This document shows positions 1 to 11,763 of a stretch of DNA of 14,100 nt, piece by piece (position 1 is the stretch's first letter; every line of letters starts with the position of its first letter). The notes under the pieces were generated by a model. The model was not told where the DNA came from, searched no databases, and saw nothing but the letters and a program-made list of their open reading frames with translations. The position numbers and the translations under genes were made by a program. This DNA comes from Elusimicrobiota bacterium (GTDB taxonomy: Bacteria > Elusimicrobiota > Elusimicrobia > UBA1565), in the NCBI GenBank assembly GCA_043819795.1, contig JBDREN010000094.1, positions 1-14,100 of the forward strand, written 5' to 3'.

Positions 1-38
1 GTCTCGCCGCTCCGTTATGTCCGGCCGTGTCAAGCCGC
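1..38 (-). repeat. Start of a pentamer-periodic (NN-RRC)n tract directly downstream of the RAMP gene; candidate guide/ncRNA, truncated by the window edge
   Basis: After the TGA the minus strand reads GCCAT GC-GGC TT-GAC AC-GGC CG-GAC AT-AAC GG-AGC GGC GA-GAC. That is six consecutive in-phase NN-RRC units, then one more after a 3-nt slip. Only 43 nt are visible. Confidence 0.5.
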
Positions 39-43
39 ATGGC

Positions 44-769
44 TCAGTCCACCTCCGCGCTCACGAGCTCGAATCGCCCATACCCGAGCGACAGGCAACT
101 CCCGATCCCTATCTTCGTCGCCGCCGCCAGCGTGCGCTTCAAGTCGTCCTTCGAGAACTTCCTCGCGGGCCAGGAGAACGCGAATGTGAACTCGCCGCCT
201 TCCTCGGCCGTCTCCGTGTGATGCTGGATGCTCTTCTTCCCCTGCGGCGTGCGAACGCTCCCGGAGATGAGCGCGTAGCTCGTCCCCACCGGACGGCCGT
301 TCCTGCGGAGGTAGATCTCCCAGGGGCGGACGAGGTCCTGCAAGCTCTCTCCGGCCGCCTCGACGGTCCCCATCTCCGCCACGTCTCCCTTCGCGCCGGG
401 TTTCGCCTTGAAAATCCCCATGCGCGAGGCCGCCTGTTTCAGCAGCGCCTTCACCATGTGCTCCAGGATGTACGGGCCTTTCTCGCCACGGCGAATCACG
501 TTGACCGCGTAGACGGACTCTTCCTTCACCTCCCCATCCTCGGGGGTCGTCTCGCGCTCCCCGATCTCCTCGCTCTGAATCCGGGCGAGGGCGGCGTCGA
601 ACTCCGCCGTGCCCGGGGCGAGGCCCAGGTGGTGCTCGGCGAACGCCCGAAGCGCCTTCTCTCCCGCCGGCTGCCCCCCGGCCAGGGGGCGTAGCAGTCG
701 GCACCGCACGACCGCGCGCTCCCGCTCAGCATCCAGCACGGCATCCAGGTCCCGCTGCGTCCAGCCCAT
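44..769 (-). CDS. Stand-alone RAMP superfamily protein, Cas7-group (Csm3/Cmr4-like), 241 aa
   Basis: RAMP motifs occur in the expected order: N-terminal strand RAVVRCRLLRPLAGG; GPYILEHMVKALLKQAA (cf. PYIPGSSxKGxxR); ETAEEGGEFTFAFSW (cf. E.v..Gt.F.f.i); C-terminal glycine-rich loop GIGSCLSLGYGRF (nt 71-109). SD GGGAGG precedes the ATG at 769. Confidence 0.8.
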   Translation of the reverse strand: MGWTQRDLDAVLDAERERAVVRCRLLRPLAGGQPAGEKALRAFAEHHLGLAPGTAEFDAALARIQSEEIGERETTPEDGEVKEESVYAVNVIRRGEKGPYILEHMVKALLKQAASRMGIFKAKPGAKGDVAEMGTVEAAGESLQDLVRPWEIYLRRNGRPVGTSYALISGSVRTPQGKKSIQHHTETAEEGGEFTFAFSWPARKFSKDDLKRTLAAATKIGIGSCLSLGYGRFELVSAEVD

Positions 770-820: not shown

Positions 821-1354
821 CTAGAACGGGACATCCGCCTCTTCCGGGGCGCCACCGAATGCGCGCTCCGCCTCCTCGTCCGAGATGCCCGTCTCCTCTT
901 CCGGCGCGGGGGCCGTGGCGGCCGCGCGCGGCGCAGGCGTACCCTCCTCTCGCCCCGGAGCGGCGTAGCCCGAGAACGGTACGCGGCGGCGTAGGCGACC
1001 CTGTTCAAGCTCCTCGGCGATAGTCACCATCGCAGACTTCCCCTTGACGCTATCGAAGATGATTCTCGCAAGGTGCCGTGCGGCCTCCTCATCATCGTCG
1101 GGTAGCGAGTGGTCTTTTGCCACTCCGCAGACACGCTGCGCTACGCAAGCGAGCCGGGGCAGAGTATTCCCAGTCACGAAGAGGTCGTCCTGGATGTTCT
1201 CGCCGGACGTGGCGACCCAGCCGAGGCGAACAAAGGGGGTTCCCTTCTTCGCCGACTTTCCTGCCGCGACCCGGACGCACTTGCACTGATAGGTTCCCGG
1301 CGGGGGAAGTTCCACATTCCCCCACGACTGTACGTCTTCGAGCGTTCGTACCAT
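821..1354 (-). CDS. Phage single-stranded DNA-binding protein, DUF669-like OB-fold, 177 aa
   Basis: N-terminal LPPPGTYQCKCVRV..KSAKKGTPFVRL resembles DUF669-type proteins. Ala/Pro linker and acidic tail ending EEADVPF, like the SSB DDIPF tip. Sits right after recT. Start reassigned to ATG 1354, just past the recT stop. Confidence 0.7.
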   Translation of the reverse strand: MVRTLEDVQSWGNVELPPPGTYQCKCVRVAAGKSAKKGTPFVRLGWVATSGENIQDDLFVTGNTLPRLACVAQRVCGVAKDHSLPDDDEEAARHLARIIFDSVKGKSAMVTIAEELEQGRLRRRVPFSGYAAPGREEGTPAPRAAATAPAPEEETGISDEEAERAFGGAPEEADVPF

Positions 1355-1355
1355 G

Positions 1356-2192
1356 TTACTTTTCCTTTTTCTCCGGCTCCTCCACCGCCTCCGGCTCCGC
1401 CGCGCGGATCGCCGAGGCCGGGATGGTGGCAACGTCCGGCTCTTGCCTCGCCTCGAAGTTCGGGCCGATGGTGGTGTCCTCTCGCGCGAGAAGGCCGCGG
1501 ACATCGGGCGACCACGCGCGCTTCGGGAGAATCTTGTAGAGCGCCCGGATTGCGGTCTTCTTCATCATTTCCTCCTCCCAGAGGTGCCACGGGGAATCTC
1601 TCGCTCCGGTCTTTTCTGCGTACTGGAATGCCTGGGAGCAGACCCGGCGCTTCGAGATGTCGTCGAGGGTCATCACGATGAACTGCGGGCGGCCGGTCGC
1701 AAGGTGTGCAACGGCGTAGACGAGGCGCGGCGCTCCTCGCTTCCAGGGGGCCAGTTCCGGCGTGTGCTCGATGCAGGAATCCGTCCCCTTCCGCACGCAG
1801 AACGTATCGTGCTCATAGACGATCTCCGCCTCGATGTTTGTGACAACCGAGCGCTCCACCAGATCTACCATGCCCTGGTAACCGAGCTGCAACACAATGT
1901 CGTTCTTGTACGGCACCAGATGCGCCTGGGCGAGCGGCCCGCCGATTTCGAGGTCGAGCGCCGCGGCCTCCAAGAGCGCCCCCATGAACATCGAGGGATT
2001 CGCGCGCGCCGCGGCCATGAGGCGCGGTTGTTGTCGTAAGAGCGTCAAGGTCACGCGCGCGAACCTGGAGGCCATCTTTAGCCGTTTTTCCTCGTCTCCG
2101 GCGACTGGCAACGCCCGGGCGATCTGCCGGACGAACTCCCCGTCGTCCTCCTCCGCGAGCGCAAGGACGACGTCCCGCTTACTCTCCGCCAT
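1356..2192 (-). CDS. recT: RecT-family single-strand annealing recombinase, 278 aa
   Basis: Typical RecT motifs: SMFMGALLEAAALDL, AHLVPY, LQLGYQGMVDLVERS, AEIVYEHDTF, VYAVAHL, PWHLWEEEMMKKTAIRALYKILP. Start reassigned to ATG 2192 with SD AAAGGAGG 8 nt upstream; overlaps the end of the nuclease gene. Confidence 0.93.
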   Translation of the reverse strand: MAESKRDVVLALAEEDDGEFVRQIARALPVAGDEEKRLKMASRFARVTLTLLRQQPRLMAAARANPSMFMGALLEAAALDLEIGGPLAQAHLVPYKNDIVLQLGYQGMVDLVERSVVTNIEAEIVYEHDTFCVRKGTDSCIEHTPELAPWKRGAPRLVYAVAHLATGRPQFIVMTLDDISKRRVCSQAFQYAEKTGARDSPWHLWEEEMMKKTAIRALYKILPKRAWSPDVRGLLAREDTTIGPNFEARQEPDVATIPASAIRAAEPEAVEEPEKKEK

Positions 2193-3024
2193 CGTCGTTT
2201 CCTCCTTTCGTCGGCCTCGTCCTTCCCCGACCCCCATAGGGGCACTGGCCCCAGTACCCGCACCAGCGCGGGCTGCAACACCATGACGCCGGGTCACACG
2301 GCGGGAACACGCCAGCCTCGATTTGTTTCAGCGCGGCGGCGATTCGCTCGAGCATCGCCGCAAGGTCCTCTTCGTCCCTCGTGGTCGAGAGGGTCATCGC
2401 CTTCGGGTTCTTCAGCGCAACGAGGTAGTCCAGGTGAATCGCCTCGGGCAGCGCCCCCCGGACGTACTTGTCCGCGAGCGCGTACATGGAGAGTTGTAGG
2501 CTCGTGTCCGCGGCGTTCCCCGATGGGGACTTCGCGGAGGTCTTGGTGTCGCGGATCGCGCGCGCCTCCAGGATGTCCGTCGTGCCCGCGAGGTCGTGCG
2601 AGAACCCCGTGAGTTCCAGCCGCCAGGACTTTTCCACGGCCACGGGCGCGAGGCTCGGCGCGACCTCGGCGTGATGGAGCGTCGCCAGGGTCACCGCCTT
2701 GTCCACCGCCTCGCCGCGGACCTCCGCCTCCGGCCGCTCGCGCTCGTCGTCGGTGAGAAGCACCCCCTCGTTCCAGGCGAGGAGCACCCCGTCTCGCGCG
2801 ACCTCGCGCACGGCCTCCTCGGCCAAGAGCGCGCCCCCCTCGATTTTGGCCGTCAGGTCCGCCGCGACGGCCCGGTGTGTGCCACTACCCACATGGGCCG
2901 CGCTCCCGGGCGGCATGATGAGGCCGCGGACGTACCGCCACTCGTACTGCTTCGGGCAGCGGTACAGCATCCCGAGGCCGGATTGGTGGAGTGTCGGCTT
3001 TGCGCGCCTGAAGGTCACTGGCAT
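2179..3024 (-). CDS. PD-(D/E)XK exonuclease (PDDEXK_1, RecB/Cas4/AddB-like, probably Fe-S), likely the RecT partner, 281 aa
   Basis: Motifs QSGLGMLYRCPKQY, GSGTH, E..W...LAGTTD...IRDTKT and QLSMYA. C-terminal Cys cluster CDPASWCCSPRWCGYWGQC. Directly upstream of recT. Confidence 0.88.
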   Translation of the reverse strand: MPVTFRRAKPTLHQSGLGMLYRCPKQYEWRYVRGLIMPPGSAAHVGSGTHRAVAADLTAKIEGGALLAEEAVREVARDGVLLAWNEGVLLTDDERERPEAEVRGEAVDKAVTLATLHHAEVAPSLAPVAVEKSWRLELTGFSHDLAGTTDILEARAIRDTKTSAKSPSGNAADTSLQLSMYALADKYVRGALPEAIHLDYLVALKNPKAMTLSTTRDEEDLAAMLERIAAALKQIEAGVFPPCDPASWCCSPRWCGYWGQCPYGGRGRTRPTKGGNDDGGE

Positions 3025-3475: not shown

Positions 3476-3525
3476 ACCTTACAACGCGCGCGGCCGGTTG
3501 TCAAGAAGTATTTTTCTTTTTCTTG
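3476..3525 (-). promoter_or_regulatory. Sigma70-type promoter driving the leader and recombination/RAMP operon
   Basis: TTGACA (3504-3499), 17-bp spacer, TAAGGT (3481-3476). Upstream A-tract AAGAAAAAGAAAAATA resembles an UP element. Predicted start near 3469. Confidence 0.8.
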
Positions 3526-3565: not shown

Positions 3566-3625
3566 CGTCACTATACAGCACTATACGCTTCTTCTGAATG
3601 CTATGCATTGCTATGCGTCACTACC
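3566..3625. repeat. AT-richer intergenic tract with 5-bp/10-bp periodicity
   Basis: Plus-strand pentamers: cgtca ctata cagca ctata cgctt cttct gaatg ctatg cattg ctatg cgtca ctacc. 11 of 12 start with C; CTA recurs at 3571, 3581, 3601, 3611 and 3621; CGTCACTA is repeated 50 bp apart. Confidence 0.7.
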
Positions 3626-3626
3626 G

Positions 3627-3659
3627 ATAAACCCGGCCGAGTCCGAAGACCCGGCCGGG
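3627..3659 (-). terminator. Intrinsic terminator ending the virion operon
   Basis: Minus strand CCCGGCCG-G-GTC-TTCG-GAC-T-CGGCCGGG-TTTAT: 12-bp stem including one G-U pair, cUUCGg tetraloop and a short U tail. Begins 35 nt after the giant gene's stop. Confidence 0.75.
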
Positions 3660-3694
3660 CGGCCCAGCGGGAAAGGGAGACTAACCCGCCAGGT

Positions 3695-6600
3695 CTACTC
3701 CCCCTTTCGCGTCGCCAGGTGCTTGTTCAGGCGTTGCATGCGTTCCCGGAAGGCGGCCCCGTCGAGCCGAATCGCGCGCTTTGGTGACTCCTCCCTGAGC
3801 CACGCCCGTAGCGTCTCCTCGGACTGGTCCGCCAGCAATTCTCCCGCGCGCGCCTGCGCCTTCTCCCACTCGCTCACCCTCTTCTCGTAATTCTCCTCCG
3901 TCTCCGGCTCGACTCCGCCGCCGCCCTTCCGGCGCTCGGGCCGAGGAGAGACGAGCGCCATGAGGCGCGAGCGCAGGGCCTTCTCCGAAAGCGCGCTCGG
4001 AGGAATGAGCGGGCGCGCAAGTTGTTTCGCCCCCTGATACGGTACGCCGCCGAAAACGCTTGCGCCGCTGGCGAGGCGGTCCAGGGCGCGCCAGATGCCG
4101 ACCTTCCACTTTTTCTCGCCGGCGTGCGAGCCGCGCTCGTACTCCTCGCCGGTCCCTGCCTGCACCCCCGCCCTGACGGCGTCCACCGCCCCCGTGATGG
4201 TGCTCAGGGTCGCGCTGGAGAGAACGTTGGTCTGCGGATCGAAGTACGGCCGACGATAGTACTGCGCCGCGGCGTAGGTGATGTCACGAAGGACCAGCAC
4301 GTTCCCGAAGATGGACAGGATGATATCGTAGACTGCATCCTCGACAATGGACTTGTCCTTCTCGTCGTCATCCCCGCCGCCGTAGAGCAGGCTGTGCAAC
4401 CCCTTGAATCCGGCCCTGACGCCATACGAAATCAGCCACACCCCCAAGGCGTTCACGACGGTAGGGTACAGGACCCGGGCGGTGAGCTTCTTCTTGTCCT
4501 CCAATGTGCGGGCGCTGTGTCCGTACTCGAAGAGGCCGCGCACCACCATGTTGTGGTACTTCGAGACCTGGCCGGAGAAGATGGCGAAGGCAACCCTGAT
4601 CAGCGGATTGTGCCGACCCGCGCGCTGGATGGCGTTGAGGGATTGCGGAGAGTAGGACGACTGCGTTAGCTCGACCAACTCTTCCGCCCGGAGGGCAGTC
4701 GCCTCCATGAGCGCCTCGCCTGTCAAGCCCCGCTCGGCTTGTTCCAGCTTCGCCGCCCGCCAGAGGCGGTCAATCGTCCACTGGTCGAGCACATGGATGG
4801 GCTTCATGCCGGCGTTCTGCGCCCGCGTGAACCAGCCTCCACTCTGGCCCGCGAACTCGGCCACCGTTTTATCCGTGAGGAACGGCGTCACGATGCGATG
4901 CGTAGAACCCTGCGCCCGCGCGTGCAGGATGGGCGAGTACCGATGCATCTCCTCGCGCGCCTGCGCCTTTTTCCCGAACATCGCGCGCGAGATGTGCCGG
5001 AGGTTTATTTCCGCCGCCGCCGGGACCAGGGATAGCAGCTGGAACAGCAGGACCCTGGCCTTGCCCACGAGGAGCGCGACGTTCGCGTTGCGCGAGAATT
5101 TGTGCAGCGCGCGTTCCAGGCCAGTCAAGGACCTCGTGGTCGGCTGCTCGTACTGCCGCAGGCCGTCCGCGAGGGTGCGCAGGATGTCAGGCCCGTACTT
5201 GTACCCATGCGTGACGGAGTTGCGGAATGTCGGGTCGTTGAGGAGCGTCCGCGCCTTTTTGATCGGGACGGCGAAGGCGGCGTAGGCGGAAACCTCGTGG
5301 ACGTGCCGCATGAACTCTTCCACGGCGTCGCCAATGATGAAGGGATCGTTGCTCGGCTCGCGCTCCTGTAGCCGGCCCGCGTCCTCCAGGTGTCGCTCGC
5401 CCCGCTGCGCGACGAACTGGTTGAAGGTGAACTGCTCCGCCTTCCCCTCGCCCCGCTTCCTGTGTCGGGGCCAGTGATGCTTTCGCAGCGGGACCTTGAC
5501 GCCCTGGTCCTCCAGCCAGGTCGCCTGATAGGCATGCGCGATGGGGCCGTCCGACAGGTAGTCCCCGATGGCGTCGGCGAACTTCCGCTCGTTCTCCGGC
5601 ATGGACTCGATGATGGCCTCGAAGTCCGCCGGGAAGAGCTTGATGGGAGTGATGCTCCGCGCCCCGGCGGCCACGATGCCCTGATGGCCAGCGCGAAGTA
5701 ACTCGTCCCTCGTGCTCGGGTCGCGCCAGTTGAGGTAGTAGCCCACGCGCTGAAAGGCGGTCATCTGGATTTTCGGCACGACCTGCATTCCCGCGCTGCT
5801 GCGCGCGAGCGGGAGAGCGATATCGAGAATCTTGGTATACGCCTTCCACCACGCCTTCCCAGTAAGCCCGGCGTCCTTCTCCGCCTGCACAAGGAACTCC
5901 TTTGCGTCCTGGAGGAATCTCGCCTGGACGCGCTCCGCCAGCCGGGGGGCCTCGCTCAAAGTCCGGTACGTCGCCGAACCCTCCGGCGCAAGGCGCGAGA
6001 CAGCTGTGAGGTGGTTGAACTGATCGCTGAGGAGAAGCCGCGCGACGAAGTTTTGCGCCTTCGCCTCGTCCACCAATCCAGGCTCCTTGGCATAGCGGGC
6101 GGGCGCGTTCTTCGCTACCTCCGCCGCCGCCTTCTCCACGACGGCCGGGAAAGACACCCGACGCCAGATGTGCGGGAGGTAGTCGCGGACGTTGTTGCCG
6201 AAAGTCTCGACCATTTTCGCCGTCCAGGCCGCGAGCGTGCGCAGGCCCTTGGCGAAGTAGTGCGCCCCGACGATGGTGGCGTTCTTCAAGACGCGCGGTC
6301 GCAGGCCCGCGAACATCGTCGTGCCGCCGAGGTCCTCGCGCAGCTCCCGCAGGGCCTTCTCCACCATGCCCTCGGTAGGCTTCCCGGGAACGATGTCCTC
6401 GGCGATGTACGCCTCGGGCGCGCCGAACTCCGCCCCCTCGCGCTCCTCTACGATGATGTCTTCAAGCTCAACGACGGCGTAGGCGGCCGGGACGCCCTCG
6501 GCCGGGAGGTCCGGGGCCGCGACGGCCGTCGCCGCGCCGCGCGTCATGGGCTTCGTCGGGAGAGCGGGGGCCGGGGGGGCCGGGGCGGCCGGAACGACAG

Positions 6601-9600
6601 GGGCCGCCAGGGCCGCCTTTTTCAGTTTTTCCGCCGCTTCCCTTGCCGCCCTCGCCTTTTCCTCTGCTTTCGCTGTCGCCCGTCTCCAACTCGGCTCCAA
6701 GCCACGCGCCCAAGCCTCCGCCTCCGTGGCCGCGCGCAACTCCTCGTATGCCTTACCCTTTTCCTTTCTCGACCCCCCCTTCTCCGCCTTTGCTGACGCC
6801 TCGCGCGCCCGCGCTAGTCTCTCCTTTGCTTTTTCCCACGACTTCTTCTTTTCGACCAACCCCGCTTGAACTCTTACCGATTCCGCCTCCCCTTCCGCTT
6901 TCACCGCTGCCGCTTCCGCCTCCGCCAGGGCCGCTTTCGCGGCCTCTGGCGCGACTTCCGCCGGGGCTGGCGCTGGGAGAGGGGGGGCCGGTTTCGGGGC
7001 CTCTGGCGGGGCTTCTACGGCCTCTGGCGCACGTGCTGGCGGGACTGGGGCGGCCGGGGCAGGGATCGCCGGGGCGGCCGGGCGCTCGGGGAGGAAGGCT
7101 TCCTTCCCGATGCGCTCCGTGATGTCCGCCGCCAACGTCCTCACCCTCTCGCTCTCGCTGAACAGCAAGGGCGTCACCTTCCCCAAGAGCGCCCTGTCTG
7201 TAAGCTTCCGCGCCGCAAGCTCTTCCAGCACGGGTAGCTCCATGCCGGGTTCCGAGAGAGCGTCCGCGAGCGCTGTATCCGGCAGGCCCTTCGCCGCCGC
7301 GCGCTGCTCCTCGCCCTTCGCCCTGGAGGCCCGTATGCGTTTCAGAAGAGCCATCTTGTTCATCCCGCCGGTCTTTATATCGTATTCTTCCGCTATCTCC
7401 CGGAGTTCGCCGAAGGACAGCGTCTCCAAGTCCTCGCCCTCGCCCGGTTTCTCGGGCGCAGCCTCCGCCGCTGGGCCGATTCGGCCAAGCGCCCGGGCGG
7501 CGTCCTCGCGCACGTTCCAATCCGCGTCGCGGAGCGCCTCGGCGAGCGCGGGGACCGTCGCCTTCGCCGCCGGGCCGATCAGGCCGAGCGCCCAGGCGGC
7601 GCCCCGGCGCACCCTCGCATCCTCATCGCCGAGCGCCTCGGCGAGCGCGGGGACCGCCACCTTCGCCGCTGGGCCAATCGAGCCGAGCGCCCGGGGGGCG
7701 TCCTCGCGCACGTCCGCATCCTCGTCGCGGAGCGCCTGGCCCCAATCCTCCGGCGTCCCGCTGAGCAGTGCCCTTTTCCACGCTTCGTTCGCCGCTAGGC
7801 CCGCGTCCTCGCCCTCGACCGGTTTCTCGGGCGCAGCCTCCGCCGCCGGCCCCGGGGGCGGGGCCTTCGACACAGGGGCCGAAACTGGCGCGAGGGGCGG
7901 GGGTTTCTCCACTGCCGGGGCCTCTGGCGACACCGGTGTCCCGGGGGACACCACCGGCGCTTGCCTCTCTGGCCCGACGAGCGCCCTTGCGACCATCTCC
8001 GCCTGGCCGGTCGGGAGTTCGGCGCGGGCTTTGGCAGCGATCTCCCGCACCGCTGGGCTGGGATGGTGGAGCGCTTCGGAAACCGCCGCCAGCGGTTCCT
8101 CCGCGAATTCCGGCATTTCAAGAGCCCGCCCGACGGCCTCCGCAAACAGCCTCCGGTTCGCTTCCTGCGTCACGTCGAATCCGAGGGCGCGCCGCGCGGC
8201 GAGCCGGCTCAACTGCCCCTTGCCCCTTCTTGCGGCCTCGACGACATCGAGCGCTTGTTCCTCGTGCGTCTGCACCCACGCCGCGACCTTTTCGGGGTCC
8301 AGCAAGTCCTCCCGCGCGATTTCCGCCGGGGCGGCCTTCGGCCGCTCCATCGGCCAAAGCCTCCGCCCTTCCACCTGCACGTAGCCCCCTTCAGGCGTGC
8401 GGACCGGGACCGCTCCGGGGGTCCAACCGGGCGCCCGAATCCCCGCAGCCGCGAGGAGCCGCCCGGTCTTTGTCTTGCCTTCCTCCTCCCACTGAACCAT
8501 CTGCCCGATGCGTAGATGCCGAACGTTCGAGGGCACGCCTTCCGCCGGGGCCGCCTCGGCCTCGACGGGAGGCAGGCGGCCTCCCTCTTCGGCTAGGATC
8601 GCCTCTGCGGGGGGCACCTTTGCTTCAAGAAGGTCCGACAAGGCTTTTGCTTCCTCGGCGTCCCCATGCCTTGCTTTACTGAGAGCCGAGACGGCTCCGG
8701 GGAAGGAAAAGATGCCAACCTCTTCCATCAGACGCTCGCGGTCGGGCCACTCTGCGACGAGCCGCTCGATGATGTTTTTGTCCTTGTGGCCGGAGATGTT
8801 GAAGACCGCGCGGAGAACGTCGGCAAGCCGCTCCTCACCGATTTCCTCCAGCATTCCGTGGAACCCGAGTTTCCGCAGCGCCGTTCTCCAGGGGCCGATC
8901 TTCCCCGGGGTCTCTTTCCACGCCTTGCCGAGAACCTTCTGCAGGACCGCCCTCTCCCCGGCCCGAAAGTACGTTCCCGCCTCTTCGGTCCCGTACTCGA
9001 TCATCTCGCCTGCAAAGGCGCGGAAGAACTCCGTCGCCGCCCCGGGGCGCGTGACGACCAGCTTGCCGTCCTGCAATTCAAGGCCGGGCGTCGTTCGCTC
9101 GGCGAACTCCGCTCCCACGCGGGGCGCGCCTACGGTCGCCGCGCGCGCGCCGGCAACGGTAGTCTCCGCAAGGGTGGCGGCCCCGAGGCGCCCGAGCCGA
9201 CTGCCTGCGACACTCTTTCCGAGAAGCTTTGTAGCGCCCTCGCGCACACCTTTGCGCACGCCCGCCGCCAGACCGCCAGTCGCCCATATCTCCGCCGCGA
9301 AGGGGACGAGACTTACAACTCCCCCGACGATGCGGGCAGCCATCGTGGTTTTGATTTCCCCCGCTCGCGCCTTGTCCTCCGCCCAATCCCGGACGAACGC
9401 GGCGGCGGCCACGGCCCGATACATGGGCACACTCCCGGGGTCCTGGCTTGCCTTCTCCAGCGTCGTCATGGCATACGTGAGCTTGTCCTTCGTGCCGAAA
9501 TTTTTTTCCATAGCCAAAATCGTTCCGAGAAAGGGAATGTCCTCTCCCCACTCTCGCGCGGCGAGCGACCCCAACACGCCCTTTGTCGGCGTGATGTCCG

Positions 9601-10111
9601 TCCAGGTTTTCTCCGGGTTGCTTTTCAAGTATCTATACAACCGGCCGTCATGTGTGCGCTTGTAGACGTATTCTCCGCTTTTGCTGTCCATCTGCTGGCC
9701 CGGTTCGAGGTACAACCATGGCGACTGCCTCTGACGGGCGGCTTCCTCTGCGGCTCGGGACCGCGCATCGCCACGGACTCGCACAAGCTCCCTTCGCAAC
9801 GACTCTCCGAGGCTTCCATGAAACGGAAGATTGAAACTGTAGCGCATCCCGGAGGGCCGTTCGTATTTCTCCGCGAGGCGATAGAGCGCGTTCCATTCGG
9901 CGTCACTGAAACTGGTGTCGTGCAAAACCGGACGCCCGCGCTCGATGTCCACTACCACGTCATTGAAAATCGGGCGCATGCGCTCCCGCACGTCCTCCGG
10001 TTTTTCTTCCCACGACGACGGCTCGAAATTCTCAAGTTCTTGCAGGGCCGAGAGGGGAGCTTCCGGTGCCTCGTTCAAAAGCTCGCCCAGCGCCGTCAGC
10101 GTTTCCGGCAT
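3695..10111 (-). CDS. Giant phage virion/ejection protein (large polyvalent-protein-like), 2138 aa, with internal HEAT repeats and a Rho-N/HeH-like motif
   Basis: 6.4-kb ORF. ATG 10111 overlaps the upstream stop (TGATG) with SD GGAGG. Last and largest gene of the virion cluster. Helical Ala/Gly-rich N-terminal part, Pro/Ala linkers, HEAT repeats, coiled coil, and C-terminal hydrophobic segments (nt 4289-4333 and 4418-4474). ORF is near certain; function is inferred from synteny and composition. Confidence 0.7.
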   Translation of the reverse strand: MPETLTALGELLNEAPEAPLSALQELENFEPSSWEEKPEDVRERMRPIFNDVVVDIERGRPVLHDTSFSDAEWNALYRLAEKYERPSGMRYSFNLPFHGSLGESLRRELVRVRGDARSRAAEEAARQRQSPWLYLEPGQQMDSKSGEYVYKRTHDGRLYRYLKSNPEKTWTDITPTKGVLGSLAAREWGEDIPFLGTILAMEKNFGTKDKLTYAMTTLEKASQDPGSVPMYRAVAAAAFVRDWAEDKARAGEIKTTMAARIVGGVVSLVPFAAEIWATGGLAAGVRKGVREGATKLLGKSVAGSRLGRLGAATLAETTVAGARAATVGAPRVGAEFAERTTPGLELQDGKLVVTRPGAATEFFRAFAGEMIEYGTEEAGTYFRAGERAVLQKVLGKAWKETPGKIGPWRTALRKLGFHGMLEEIGEERLADVLRAVFNISGHKDKNIIERLVAEWPDRERLMEEVGIFSFPGAVSALSKARHGDAEEAKALSDLLEAKVPPAEAILAEEGGRLPPVEAEAAPAEGVPSNVRHLRIGQMVQWEEEGKTKTGRLLAAAGIRAPGWTPGAVPVRTPEGGYVQVEGRRLWPMERPKAAPAEIAREDLLDPEKVAAWVQTHEEQALDVVEAARRGKGQLSRLAARRALGFDVTQEANRRLFAEAVGRALEMPEFAEEPLAAVSEALHHPSPAVREIAAKARAELPTGQAEMVARALVGPERQAPVVSPGTPVSPEAPAVEKPPPLAPVSAPVSKAPPPGPAAEAAPEKPVEGEDAGLAANEAWKRALLSGTPEDWGQALRDEDADVREDAPRALGSIGPAAKVAVPALAEALGDEDARVRRGAAWALGLIGPAAKATVPALAEALRDADWNVREDAARALGRIGPAAEAAPEKPGEGEDLETLSFGELREIAEEYDIKTGGMNKMALLKRIRASRAKGEEQRAAAKGLPDTALADALSEPGMELPVLEELAARKLTDRALLGKVTPLLFSESERVRTLAADITERIGKEAFLPERPAAPAIPAPAAPVPPARAPEAVEAPPEAPKPAPPLPAPAPAEVAPEAAKAALAEAEAAAVKAEGEAESVRVQAGLVEKKKSWEKAKERLARAREASAKAEKGGSRKEKGKAYEELRAATEAEAWARGLEPSWRRATAKAEEKARAAREAAEKLKKAALAAPVVPAAPAPPAPALPTKPMTRGAATAVAAPDLPAEGVPAAYAVVELEDIIVEEREGAEFGAPEAYIAEDIVPGKPTEGMVEKALRELREDLGGTTMFAGLRPRVLKNATIVGAHYFAKGLRTLAAWTAKMVETFGNNVRDYLPHIWRRVSFPAVVEKAAAEVAKNAPARYAKEPGLVDEAKAQNFVARLLLSDQFNHLTAVSRLAPEGSATYRTLSEAPRLAERVQARFLQDAKEFLVQAEKDAGLTGKAWWKAYTKILDIALPLARSSAGMQVVPKIQMTAFQRVGYYLNWRDPSTRDELLRAGHQGIVAAGARSITPIKLFPADFEAIIESMPENERKFADAIGDYLSDGPIAHAYQATWLEDQGVKVPLRKHHWPRHRKRGEGKAEQFTFNQFVAQRGERHLEDAGRLQEREPSNDPFIIGDAVEEFMRHVHEVSAYAAFAVPIKKARTLLNDPTFRNSVTHGYKYGPDILRTLADGLRQYEQPTTRSLTGLERALHKFSRNANVALLVGKARVLLFQLLSLVPAAAEINLRHISRAMFGKKAQAREEMHRYSPILHARAQGSTHRIVTPFLTDKTVAEFAGQSGGWFTRAQNAGMKPIHVLDQWTIDRLWRAAKLEQAERGLTGEALMEATALRAEELVELTQSSYSPQSLNAIQRAGRHNPLIRVAFAIFSGQVSKYHNMVVRGLFEYGHSARTLEDKKKLTARVLYPTVVNALGVWLISYGVRAGFKGLHSLLYGGGDDDEKDKSIVEDAVYDIILSIFGNVLVLRDITYAAAQYYRRPYFDPQTNVLSSATLSTITGAVDAVRAGVQAGTGEEYERGSHAGEKKWKVGIWRALDRLASGASVFGGVPYQGAKQLARPLIPPSALSEKALRSRLMALVSPRPERRKGGGGVEPETEENYEKRVSEWEKAQARAGELLADQSEETLRAWLREESPKRAIRLDGAAFRERMQRLNKHLATRKGE
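7430..7846. repeat. 42-bp direct repeats (7430-7471 and 7805-7846, one mismatch) enclosing about three 99-bp HEAT (PBS-lyase-like) repeat units
   Basis: gtcctcgccctcg(c/a)ccggtttctcgggcgcagcctccgccgc occurs twice, 375 bp apart. GAGCGCCT recurs at 7532, 7631 and 7730. Protein unit LxDxDxxVRxxAxxALGxIGPAAKxxVPALAEA (33 aa). Confidence 0.9.
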
Positions 10112-11763
10112 CACTGGCCTCCTGCAAGTGCAAGAGCCTTCCGAAACGAGTCCCGAATCGTACCAAACTCGCCGTCAATCGCTCGGAGCGCGGCGATGAT
10201 TTCCCGCCGTTCCTCCCCCGTGGCATGAGGAAGGAGACCTTCCAGTCGCGCCCTCTCCGCCTTCAGCACAGGCACACGCTCGTTCGCCTTCCGGGCGTCG
10301 TCTTGAAACTCCGGGGGGAAGTCGCTAACGTCTGGCGGTCGCGGGGCGGCCGGGGCCGCCGGGGCCTCGCCGGATGCCGGGGCCGGAACGCCAGCCCCGC
10401 CGGGGGTCGGGACCGCCGCCCCACCGGGGGCCGCGGCCGCTGCTCCTCGCGGCTCCGGGGCCTGCCCGGCCATGAGAGCAACGTTGTCAACCAAGTTCGC
10501 CGCTGCGGCGGCAGCCATCTCCGGCGAGGAGTATATTGGGTTTCCCTTGTAGTCCGTCAGCTTCATATTCATAAGGTTTAGTGCAAGCGCAAGAATCCGG
10601 TCTGCGCGGTCCCGCGTCATTTGTTCATTGCGGTACTCGATGTCCATCTGCCGCCGACGATTTCCAAGTTCCTTCCCCTCCGCTTGAAGGGGGGCCAAGA
10701 TAGCCCGCCTGTCGTTCTCGATGTCCGCAAGGTTGTTGGCGTGTGTCTGTCTCTCCTCCGTCAAAGCCGTCTGCTGCTGCGCCACGGCGAGGTTTCCGCT
10801 ACGGATTTTCTCCATCTCCCTGTTGGTACGCTCGATCTCATTCTGCTTGCGCTCATCCATAACGGCATTCTCGGCGCTTGTCTTCTCGTCCAAGGCGCGT
10901 TTCGCCTCGTCCAACTCCGCCTTGCGTTTGGCTTCCTCCGTCTCGCGCTGCTCCGTCCGCTTCTTTCGCGCCGCCTCTTCCCGTGCCTCCTCCGCCTTGA
11001 ACTTCTCCGCTTCGTACTTCTGCTCCGCCTCCTTCTGCCCGGCTTCGATCTCAGTCCTGTTGAAAATGGGCTTTGGCAGCGGGGCGCCGTTCTCGTCTAT
11101 CCCGAAGACGTTGCCCTGGTCGTCCGTATAGGTCTTCTGCGCGAAAAGCTCCTCTGGCGTCGGCTCGCGCTTCCCCTGCGCCGTCTCCATGATGCCTTCC
11201 TCTTGCCCGTCCAGAACGGCAATCATCTGGCGGCCCCACTCCGGGCGGTATTGTCCACTGTACACCCTGGTGGCGATGCTCCGGCGGGCGAAGTTGATTT
11301 GACCGAGGGCGCGCTGAGTGTCCGGGGAGAGCCGAATCGGGGCAGGCATCGGCGTGGGAAATTGAAGCTGGCTCGCCGCCATCTTGGCATCTTCTGCCGC
11401 CATGCGCGCCTGAAGGGCAGCAAGCTCGTTCTGCGTACTCTGCGCTTCCTCAGGCTCTCCCTTTGCTTGTCGCCGCGCCAATTCTTCCATCAACCCCTGC
11501 TCGACGACCGCCTCGCGCTCCCACGCGATGGCTTCGTCCTGCGCGGCCTGCGCGATGCCCATCCGGTCGAAGCTGGTGATTCCCCCAGGCGTCCGAGGGA
11601 CGACCCCGAGGCTCGATGTCGTCCGCCCCATCGTCATCCCGGAGCCGGACGCCTCCGGCGGCTCGCCCCCCCCTCCACCGCCGCGCGGCGCGTTCGCCAA
11701 CCCCGCGAGAAGCGCGAGTTGCAGCAAGGCGCTCGGGTCACCGTATCGGACTTCTATCGGCAT
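10111..11763 (-). CDS. Putative ejection/internal virion protein with long coiled coil, 550 aa
   Basis: SD AGGAGG overlapping the upstream TAG. E/K/R/A/Q-rich central coiled coil and Pro/Ala linker. Lies between a small Gly/Gln-rich gene and the giant gene, as in podovirus ejection clusters. Confidence 0.6.
   Translation of the reverse strand: MPIEVRYGDPSALLQLALLAGLANAPRGGGGGGEPPEASGSGMTMGRTTSSLGVVPRTPGGITSFDRMGIAQAAQDEAIAWEREAVVEQGLMEELARRQAKGEPEEAQSTQNELAALQARMAAEDAKMAASQLQFPTPMPAPIRLSPDTQRALGQINFARRSIATRVYSGQYRPEWGRQMIAVLDGQEEGIMETAQGKREPTPEELFAQKTYTDDQGNVFGIDENGAPLPKPIFNRTEIEAGQKEAEQKYEAEKFKAEEAREEAARKKRTEQRETEEAKRKAELDEAKRALDEKTSAENAVMDERKQNEIERTNREMEKIRSGNLAVAQQQTALTEERQTHANNLADIENDRRAILAPLQAEGKELGNRRRQMDIEYRNEQMTRDRADRILALALNLMNMKLTDYKGNPIYSSPEMAAAAAANLVDNVALMAGQAPEPRGAAAAAPGGAAVPTPGGAGVPAPASGEAPAAPAAPRPPDVSDFPPEFQDDARKANERVPVLKAERARLEGLLPHATGEERREIIAALRAIDGEFGTIRDSFRKALALAGGQ

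Follow-up and report, generated by a model that had tools for sequence, protein, structure and literature searches.

A likely divergent VIPR branch on an Elusimicrobiota contig: a solo RAMP gene followed by a punctuated array of NN-NRY pentamers

VIPR systems were first described in 2026 in a study that distinguished seven types and reported alternative repeats of the forms NNNGG, YNNNG and NNNNG as well as staggered vrRNA arrays (10.64898/2026.04.26.720920). An anti-satellite function is shown in the accessible part of a second preprint (10.64898/2026.10.15.759431), and the portion available of a third describes non-canonical arrays (GAC/NN, CAC/NN, WGT/NN and TGH/NN) beside Vipr-like folds, in 21 clusters (10.64898/2026.10.21.760802). 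According to the part of the structural study at hand, the SUSP1 Vipr reads G1 through H17 and D177 and stacks W178 on G2 (10.64898/2026.04.26.720927). Again within the sections available, the motif substitutions assayed in SUSP1 included GGY>GAY and GGY>AAY, and perturbing GGY abolished silencing. The system analysed here is likely a divergent VIPR branch, of a kind, and with non-GGY repeats, that the 2026 preprints had already published.

The window comprises contig JBDREN010000094.1 (C94) of the source assembly in full (14,100 nt); this assembly is 90.3% complete. The features under study lie at its left end and are all read on the minus strand:

1-38, minus: first (5') part of the predicted guide array, which the contig end truncates (from the sequence)
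6-13, minus: second junction, an NN-AGC/GGC register break (the slash marks the break), followed by one pentamer at 1-5 (by clade grammar)
11-38, minus: one complete predicted unit with junction GCGGC, four NNN-RC pentamers and a terminal NNA, giving five NN pairs (by clade grammar)
44-769, minus: Vipr-like solo RAMP gene, 241 aa (from the ORF, predicted fold and profile comparison; Pfam RAMPs match at E 0.0053, under the cut-off)
71-109, minus: G-loop GIGSCLSLGYGRF, residues 221-233 (from sequence and alignment)
777-783, minus: GGGAGGG resembling a ribosome-binding site before the ATG (from sequence)
821-3024, minus: 177-aa ORF, RecT and PD-(D/E)XK exonuclease, apparently in the same operon as the RAMP gene (context only)

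Because the contig ends at base 1, only 38 nt of the array are left. No other contig of the source assembly overlapped the window start and no continuation of the array was found on one, while in four public runs examined one public contig continues 224 nt beyond base 1. RecT (E 1.6e-32) and the exonuclease (E 2.3e-17) are both encoded 5' of the RAMP gene on the same strand, and virion-like genes with PHROG matches lie farther upstream of these recombination genes. An apparent phage recombination operon, as proposed in the preliminary description, is thus present in the window, but this setting is not conserved, as the nine window neighbours gave 0 tblastn matches in 46 homologous loci. No cas family was detected in the 10 window proteins scanned, which cover the DNA up to base 1, in agreement with the earlier claim of a locus with neither cas genes nor a CRISPR array.

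Several other elements of the window were recorded. The 177-aa ORF (821-1354, minus), which sits between RecT and the RAMP gene, has no Pfam or PHROG match and carries an acidic tail terminating in VPF; we take it to resemble phage single-strand binding proteins. A 2139-aa virion-like protein (3695-10114, minus) contains an internal HEAT-repeat insert (790-881) and has a weak DarB-like match. At 3476-3504 (minus), 5' of the exonuclease-RecT-RAMP run, TTGACA-17 nt-TAAGGT was picked out by eye; it was absent from the consensus scan list and is a candidate promoter for the RAMP gene and array. Between this promoter-like site and a strong hairpin (about 3633-3660) lie twelve pentamers (3567-3626, plus), mostly RC-ending, with TATAC/TATGC at a 10-nt period and without the junction motif. 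Out of 9.95 million positions in the genome, 50 reach the score of this tract, with about 0.14 to be expected on C94, and the tract is a candidate for operator repeats or an orphan guide.

The 241-aa protein had been described as a solo Cas7-like RAMP with a G-loop, and the proposed structure prediction and Foldseek search bore this out. The AlphaFold2 model, built from 66 sequences, has a pLDDT of 94.8 and consists of a single RRM, with no second RRM, a two-helix bundle after strand 1, a long thumb hairpin (163-188) and the G-loop. Type VII Cas7 (E 2e-9) and type III-A Csm3 took the top Foldseek ranks and are the best solved structural matches; VIA-align placed the model on Csm3 (9g9a_D) with Z 12.0 and rmsd 4.1 over 159 aligned residues. 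Identity to solved Cas7 and Csm3 proteins is just 10-19%, a PDB sequence search gave no match, and no Vipr chain was among the PDB fold matches (library to April 2026). NCBIfam returned 0 matches for the protein and weak ones (E 0.002-0.007) for 2 of 66 family members. Three uncharacterised viral models match at E 4e-13 to 6e-9, with best TM values of 0.63 and 0.55. The protein differs from Csm3 and Cas7 in that it has no accompanying cas operon or CRISPR array, its clade has a step of 5 nt compared to 6 nt (the latter figure from the VIPR papers), and it lacks a catalytic Asp after strand 1. In Csm3 the catalytic Asp presumably lies after strand 1; residues 30-35 at this place are AGGQPA, conserved in the family and free of Asp, as the preliminary description had noticed. 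Four basic residues (R63, K111, R116, K127) are nearly invariant in the family and may grip the backbone.

The homologue searches gave 65 sequences at 36-65% identity and, with E values no higher than 0.001, 144 representatives; the Atlas clusters nearest to the family are 88-100% viral. No match was found among 50,697 phage records, and a survey of the phylum detected the family in one of 401 genomes, namely the source assembly. The representatives include the very long proteins P0153 (1336 aa) and P0175 (4517 aa), which show repeated short matches and might be RAMP fusions. A distant homologue (prob 97.7) is encoded unannotated in the isolated Microcystis phage Mae-JY09 (PP395641.1, region 37713-38900), for which the literature search found no paper under its name.

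Profiles were compared for the window family (143 sequences), SUSP1-type Viprs (107) and Csm3 (12, a shallow alignment). The SUSP1 Vipr was located at KT454805 28474-29061, and its H17, K33, R138, D177, W178 and R179 agree with the structure paper. By hhalign the window family matched SUSP1-type Vipr with a probability of 82.7, over only 49 columns around the G-loop, compared to 57.9 for Csm3. A bridging clade, itself matching the window family at 100, scored 94.9 against SUSP1-type Vipr and 14.9 against Csm3. These profiles favour a position somewhat nearer SUSP1-type Vipr than Csm3, as a comparison with only type II-like Viprs and 12 Csm3 sequences and not as a phylogeny. The likeness to VIPR suggested in the preliminary description agrees with this profile result and with the pentamer array that is tied to the family.

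The protein shares with the SUSP1 type II Vipr the RRM, the helical bundle after strand 1, the thumb and the G-loop, and the window clade has GGY at its unit starts, but the SUSP1 protein is 195 aa long compared to 241 aa, and its H17, D177, W178 and R179 are replaced in the window RAMP. Among 107 SUSP1-type proteins, H17 is kept in 97, D177 in 93 and W178 in 68 (plus 34 with Y). In the window family the site aligned to H17 is G32 in 133 of 143 members (manual alignment on the RP motif), the site aligned to D177 is S224 in 134 of 143, and residue 225, aligned to W178, is A, C or V (C225 in the window); S224/C225/L226 thus align to D177/W178/R179 of SUSP1. Judged by this alignment, the residues that read G1 and G2 appear to have been lost in the window family.

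The 43 nt after the RAMP stop read GCCAT, then GCGGC TTGAC ACGGC CGGAC ATAAC GGA GCGGC GAGAC. A 5-nt periodic tract starting 5 nt past the stop had been reported, and it does start there, with GCGGC. Six RRC triplets recur there at period 5 (nt 36-9), an arrangement that a search of 9.98 Mb (both strands of the source assembly) found 4 times, and a stricter unit pattern derived from the homologues occurs once, at the window site. Two parts of the earlier reading need correction. The period is not unbroken, since it shifts by 3 nt at nt 11/10 (AGC/GGC), which is the conserved unit junction of the clade, and the fixed RRC triplet alternating with NN was a small-sample reading of what is N-R-Y, mostly NAC, over 1781 pentamers.

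These pentamers came from 349 units at 31 loci, a composition set from which further duplicates and paralogous units had been removed. Positions 1-3 carry 1.96, 1.99 and 1.93 bits, and the first triplet base is nearly free (G 38%), with GAC the commonest triplet. Position 4 is A in 73% and G in 19%, and position 5 is C in 77% and T in 21%; because the parser demanded mostly RY, positions 4-5 are partly filtered and positions 1-3 are not. The repeat grammar is one of NN-N-RY pentamers, mostly NN-NAC. Units take the form GGY-(NN-NRY)n-NN-AGC and directly adjoin one another, GGY opening each unit, and 312 of 349 have 4-8 repeats. In windows chosen by AC periodicity alone, 125 of 157 intervals between junctions were 3 mod 5. 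Written in VIPR notation, the junction corresponds to a YNNGG repeat that lacks NN. Whole single units have been duplicated and shuffled, both within and between arrays. A scan with the unit pattern gave two viral loci, one of them new and adjoining a bridging-clade gene. In Mae-JY09 the homologue is followed by C-rich NN-NNC pentamers with extra GAC punctuation, and 8 of 14 spacings are 3 mod 5.

The gene and the array are linked family-wide. After 8 near-duplicates were removed from the 46 homologous loci fetched, 38 non-redundant loci were searched for GCGGY followed by three NNN-RY pentamers, required at least twice; 29 of 38 loci carried this motif on the strand of the gene and 2 of 38 on the opposite one, so that the repeat association in homologues, a check set out beforehand, was found. 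The nine loci without it comprise six with at most 185 nt downstream, two AT-rich array variants and one with an array 41 kb away. In this last case (L144 350-1250, genome G403) the array lies about 41 kb from the RAMP gene in a 163-kb phage, and GCAGC is the commoner junction. By a looser count 23 loci have the array downstream of the gene and 10 have it upstream, and the number of junctions reaches about 50. In provirus locus L001 (4721-5247) tmRNA and tRNA genes occur about 2 kb downstream of the array.

The system is mostly viral or proviral and stands in a phage context. The 92 ORFs neighbouring the homologues match integrases, excisionase-type HTH proteins, DnaB, SSB, AAA proteins, SLT, ParB and a methylase, with no cas genes among them, and no accessory, vap or nuclease partner was conserved, since no neighbour was common beyond closely related phages. 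These cas-free, unshared neighbourhoods indicate that the unit is the gene plus the array, inserted in various phage early regions. RecT and the exonuclease were considered as guide-diversifying partners and rejected because they are not conserved beside homologues.

The linkage also bears on the alternative raised in the preliminary description, a Cas7 mimic with anti-CRISPR activity. Such a mimic would act on the type III-A complex of the presumed host, and the repeat would serve as a decoy or be incidental. The source assembly does encode type III-A csm genes on another contig (C192, about 14500-17800; Csm3 E 7.8e-59), Csm3 and Cas7 are the best solved folds, and viral inhibitors derived from cas genes have reportedly been published (10.1101/2023.06.24.545427). 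Since array and gene family go together, this alternative is nevertheless weak, and a mimic has no need of arrays that are retained next to the gene family-wide and reach about 50 variable units. Its identity to solved Cas7/Csm3 is low and its profile nearer to Vipr, and C94 has no link to the CRISPR of the presumed host, for which no array is assembled (simple finder); the source assembly also gave no Cas1 match. We regard an inhibitor of this kind as very unlikely. That the window copy is a decayed or non-functional remnant of a real family is highly improbable. Just one full unit is visible in the window, but the ORF is intact and preceded by a motif like a ribosome site, all 14 invariant family residues are present (by construction of alignment A1), the window unit fits the clade grammar exactly, and the DNA goes on past base 1 in the public contig.

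The family-level features of VIPR are present, namely the RAMP fold, a cas-free locus, a viral setting and pentamer repeats. The window system is not a member of type II VIPR, which in SUSP1 has GGY throughout, 9-16 repeats with a structured 3' tail, and vap1, features that do not characterise the window clade. It resembles the alternative-repeat and staggered systems in its solo phage RAMP, lack of cas genes, pentamers and degenerate first triplet base (YNNNG), and its back-to-back guides, one ending where the next starts, resemble the staggered arrays (10.64898/2026.04.26.720920). It differs from the alternative repeats in that the window clade has a YNNNR repeat whose conserved purine is A in 73%, and its register shifts by +3, compared to the 1-nt overlap given in the legend of Fig. 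S18 of that study, the part of it that bears on this point. The AC-ending triplets beside a Vipr-like fold recall the GAC/NN and CAC/NN arrays (10.64898/2026.10.21.760802); in the portion of that preprint available, however, the triplet is treated as fixed and no junction or unit structure is given, whereas in the window clade the first base is nearly free. Since GAC is the commonest triplet here, the clade may be one of those 21 clusters, as far as the accessible text describes them. No text on an NAC array split by AGCGGC was found in the literature, and figures S17-S18 (720920) and S10 (760802) and the data files may show the clade.

The most probable explanation, which we hold with fair confidence, is a divergent VIPR system in which the array would be transcribed together with the RAMP gene and the transcript likely cut at every AGC/GGC register break, as the geometry suggests, into short guides of 4-8 repeats. 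The RAMP would polymerise on each guide, one subunit per repeat, and in every NRY triplet it would hold no more than the RY. The predicted role of the NN pairs is to bind, skipping one base each time, the dsDNA of a mobile element that competes with the phage, so that the bound element would be silenced without cutting. This explanation builds on the fold, array grammar, linkage and phage context described above and on the loss of G-reading residues by alignment; expression, filament, skip rule, silencing and target class are modelled on the SUSP1 work by analogy. Under NN reading, 4-8 repeats correspond to 8-16 read bases per unit. Counting against this explanation are the shortness of such units compared to the 9-16 repeats of type II, the negative target searches described below, and a third base that changes no faster than NN in related units.

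A quite unlikely alternative is that the junction is an internal register step, with one long RNA or tandem short filaments reading adjacent target segments. Such multi-unit guides would solve the specificity problem of short units, and the arrays of 11 sources contain no ribozyme or other Rfam family, hammerhead included, for cutting, nor is there a conserved nuclease partner. However, the NN-less triplet would misfit the filament of SUSP1 with its one subunit per 5 nt, as extrapolated from the part of the structural study available (10.64898/2026.04.26.720927), and duplication and shuffling, both inside an array and from one array to another, involve single whole units.

Searches for targets gave none, with all results at chance. 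A comparison of 199 units with 0.54 Mb of pooled loci under seven codes remained at chance level, as did that of the first 70 of 118 long units with the source assembly. The window unit has four chance-level exact sites in the source assembly under the 2+1 rule, none of them on the csm contig. Three single-unit patterns gave 36, 10 and 14 matches in viral_contigs, none extending beyond chance; no self-targeting was detected in Mae-JY09 and one provirus, and 216 units had no target in two phage genomes. In an order test on 339 units, six non-canonical codes gave z of 0.2-1.7 compared to 2.0-7.7 in simulations, which are optimistic because guides were assumed to be undrifted; for the 2+1 rule the observed value was 0.62 against -0.8 to 2.7 simulated, a range in which the test is without power. 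A compact 2+0 code was rejected, since its z of about 3 dropped to 1.67 with more training DNA against an expected 6-7. Codes that depart from the canonical two-read, one-skip rule are disfavoured by the composition tests, which do not amount to proof of that rule.

Among six phases, it is positions 1-2 of sense codons that agree best with the composition of NN (r 0.77-0.79; 996 of 1000 locus bootstraps; 10 of 21 loci). On this reading the guides would be mRNA-like and would pair with the template strand of the DNA. The codon signal comes from purine enrichment at the first base of NN, which a binding pocket could also produce, and the residual part of the signal is unspecific. An in-frame order test gave z of 0.0-0.1 compared to 0.2-2.2 if true and was underpowered.

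An unlikely alternative reading is a three-base code, in which the third base, no longer fixed, takes part in target pairing as well, so that three bases would be read and 0-2 skipped. It would give 15-21 read bases per typical unit, units being too short for genome-unique reading by NN only, and it agrees with the loss of the G1-reading residues and with a third base at 1.93 bits compared to 1.96 and 1.99 for NN. In related unit pairs the third base is also no more variable than NN, with changes in 19 of 172 compared to 25 of 172 and 33 of 172 for the first two bases (about 12 of 34 such pairs are expected by chance). Against this, the third base as a wobble copy gave z of 1.1-1.8 compared to 6.6-9.3 simulated, stop codons are not avoided, and order z for 3+0, 3+1 and 3+2 was 1.35, 0.36 and 0.21 compared to 3.5-7.7 simulated. 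The dinucleotide bias at N2-N3 recurs at N3-scaffold and therefore reflects physical adjacency; it was discarded as proof that three bases are read. Mae-JY09 shows a drift to C at positions 3-4 (24 of 39 and 21 of 39) whereas NN is near-even, and no three-base target was found in the source assembly. A bolder version, which we consider a long shot, is a VIPR branch moved towards CRISPR, with a two-base scaffold, pairing of the third base and a RAMP that cuts the precursor at AGC/GGC as its own Cas6. If true, its three-read code would lie between the two-plus-one of VIPR and the five-plus-one of CRISPR, and the RAMP would process a precursor that contains many guides, as many as about 50 units.

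As a likely divergent VIPR system, the locus would represent a branch in which the protein pocket and the RNA scaffold appear to have changed together, the G-reading residues being lost and the scaffold being NAC, and in which many short predicted guides are held in one punctuated array without an accessory gene or ribozyme. If it works, a one-protein, multiplexed DNA binder with 30-nt guides would be a compact tool. The system lends itself to testing how arrays without a tail undergo processing and whether a scaffold base, once freed, joins in reading the target.
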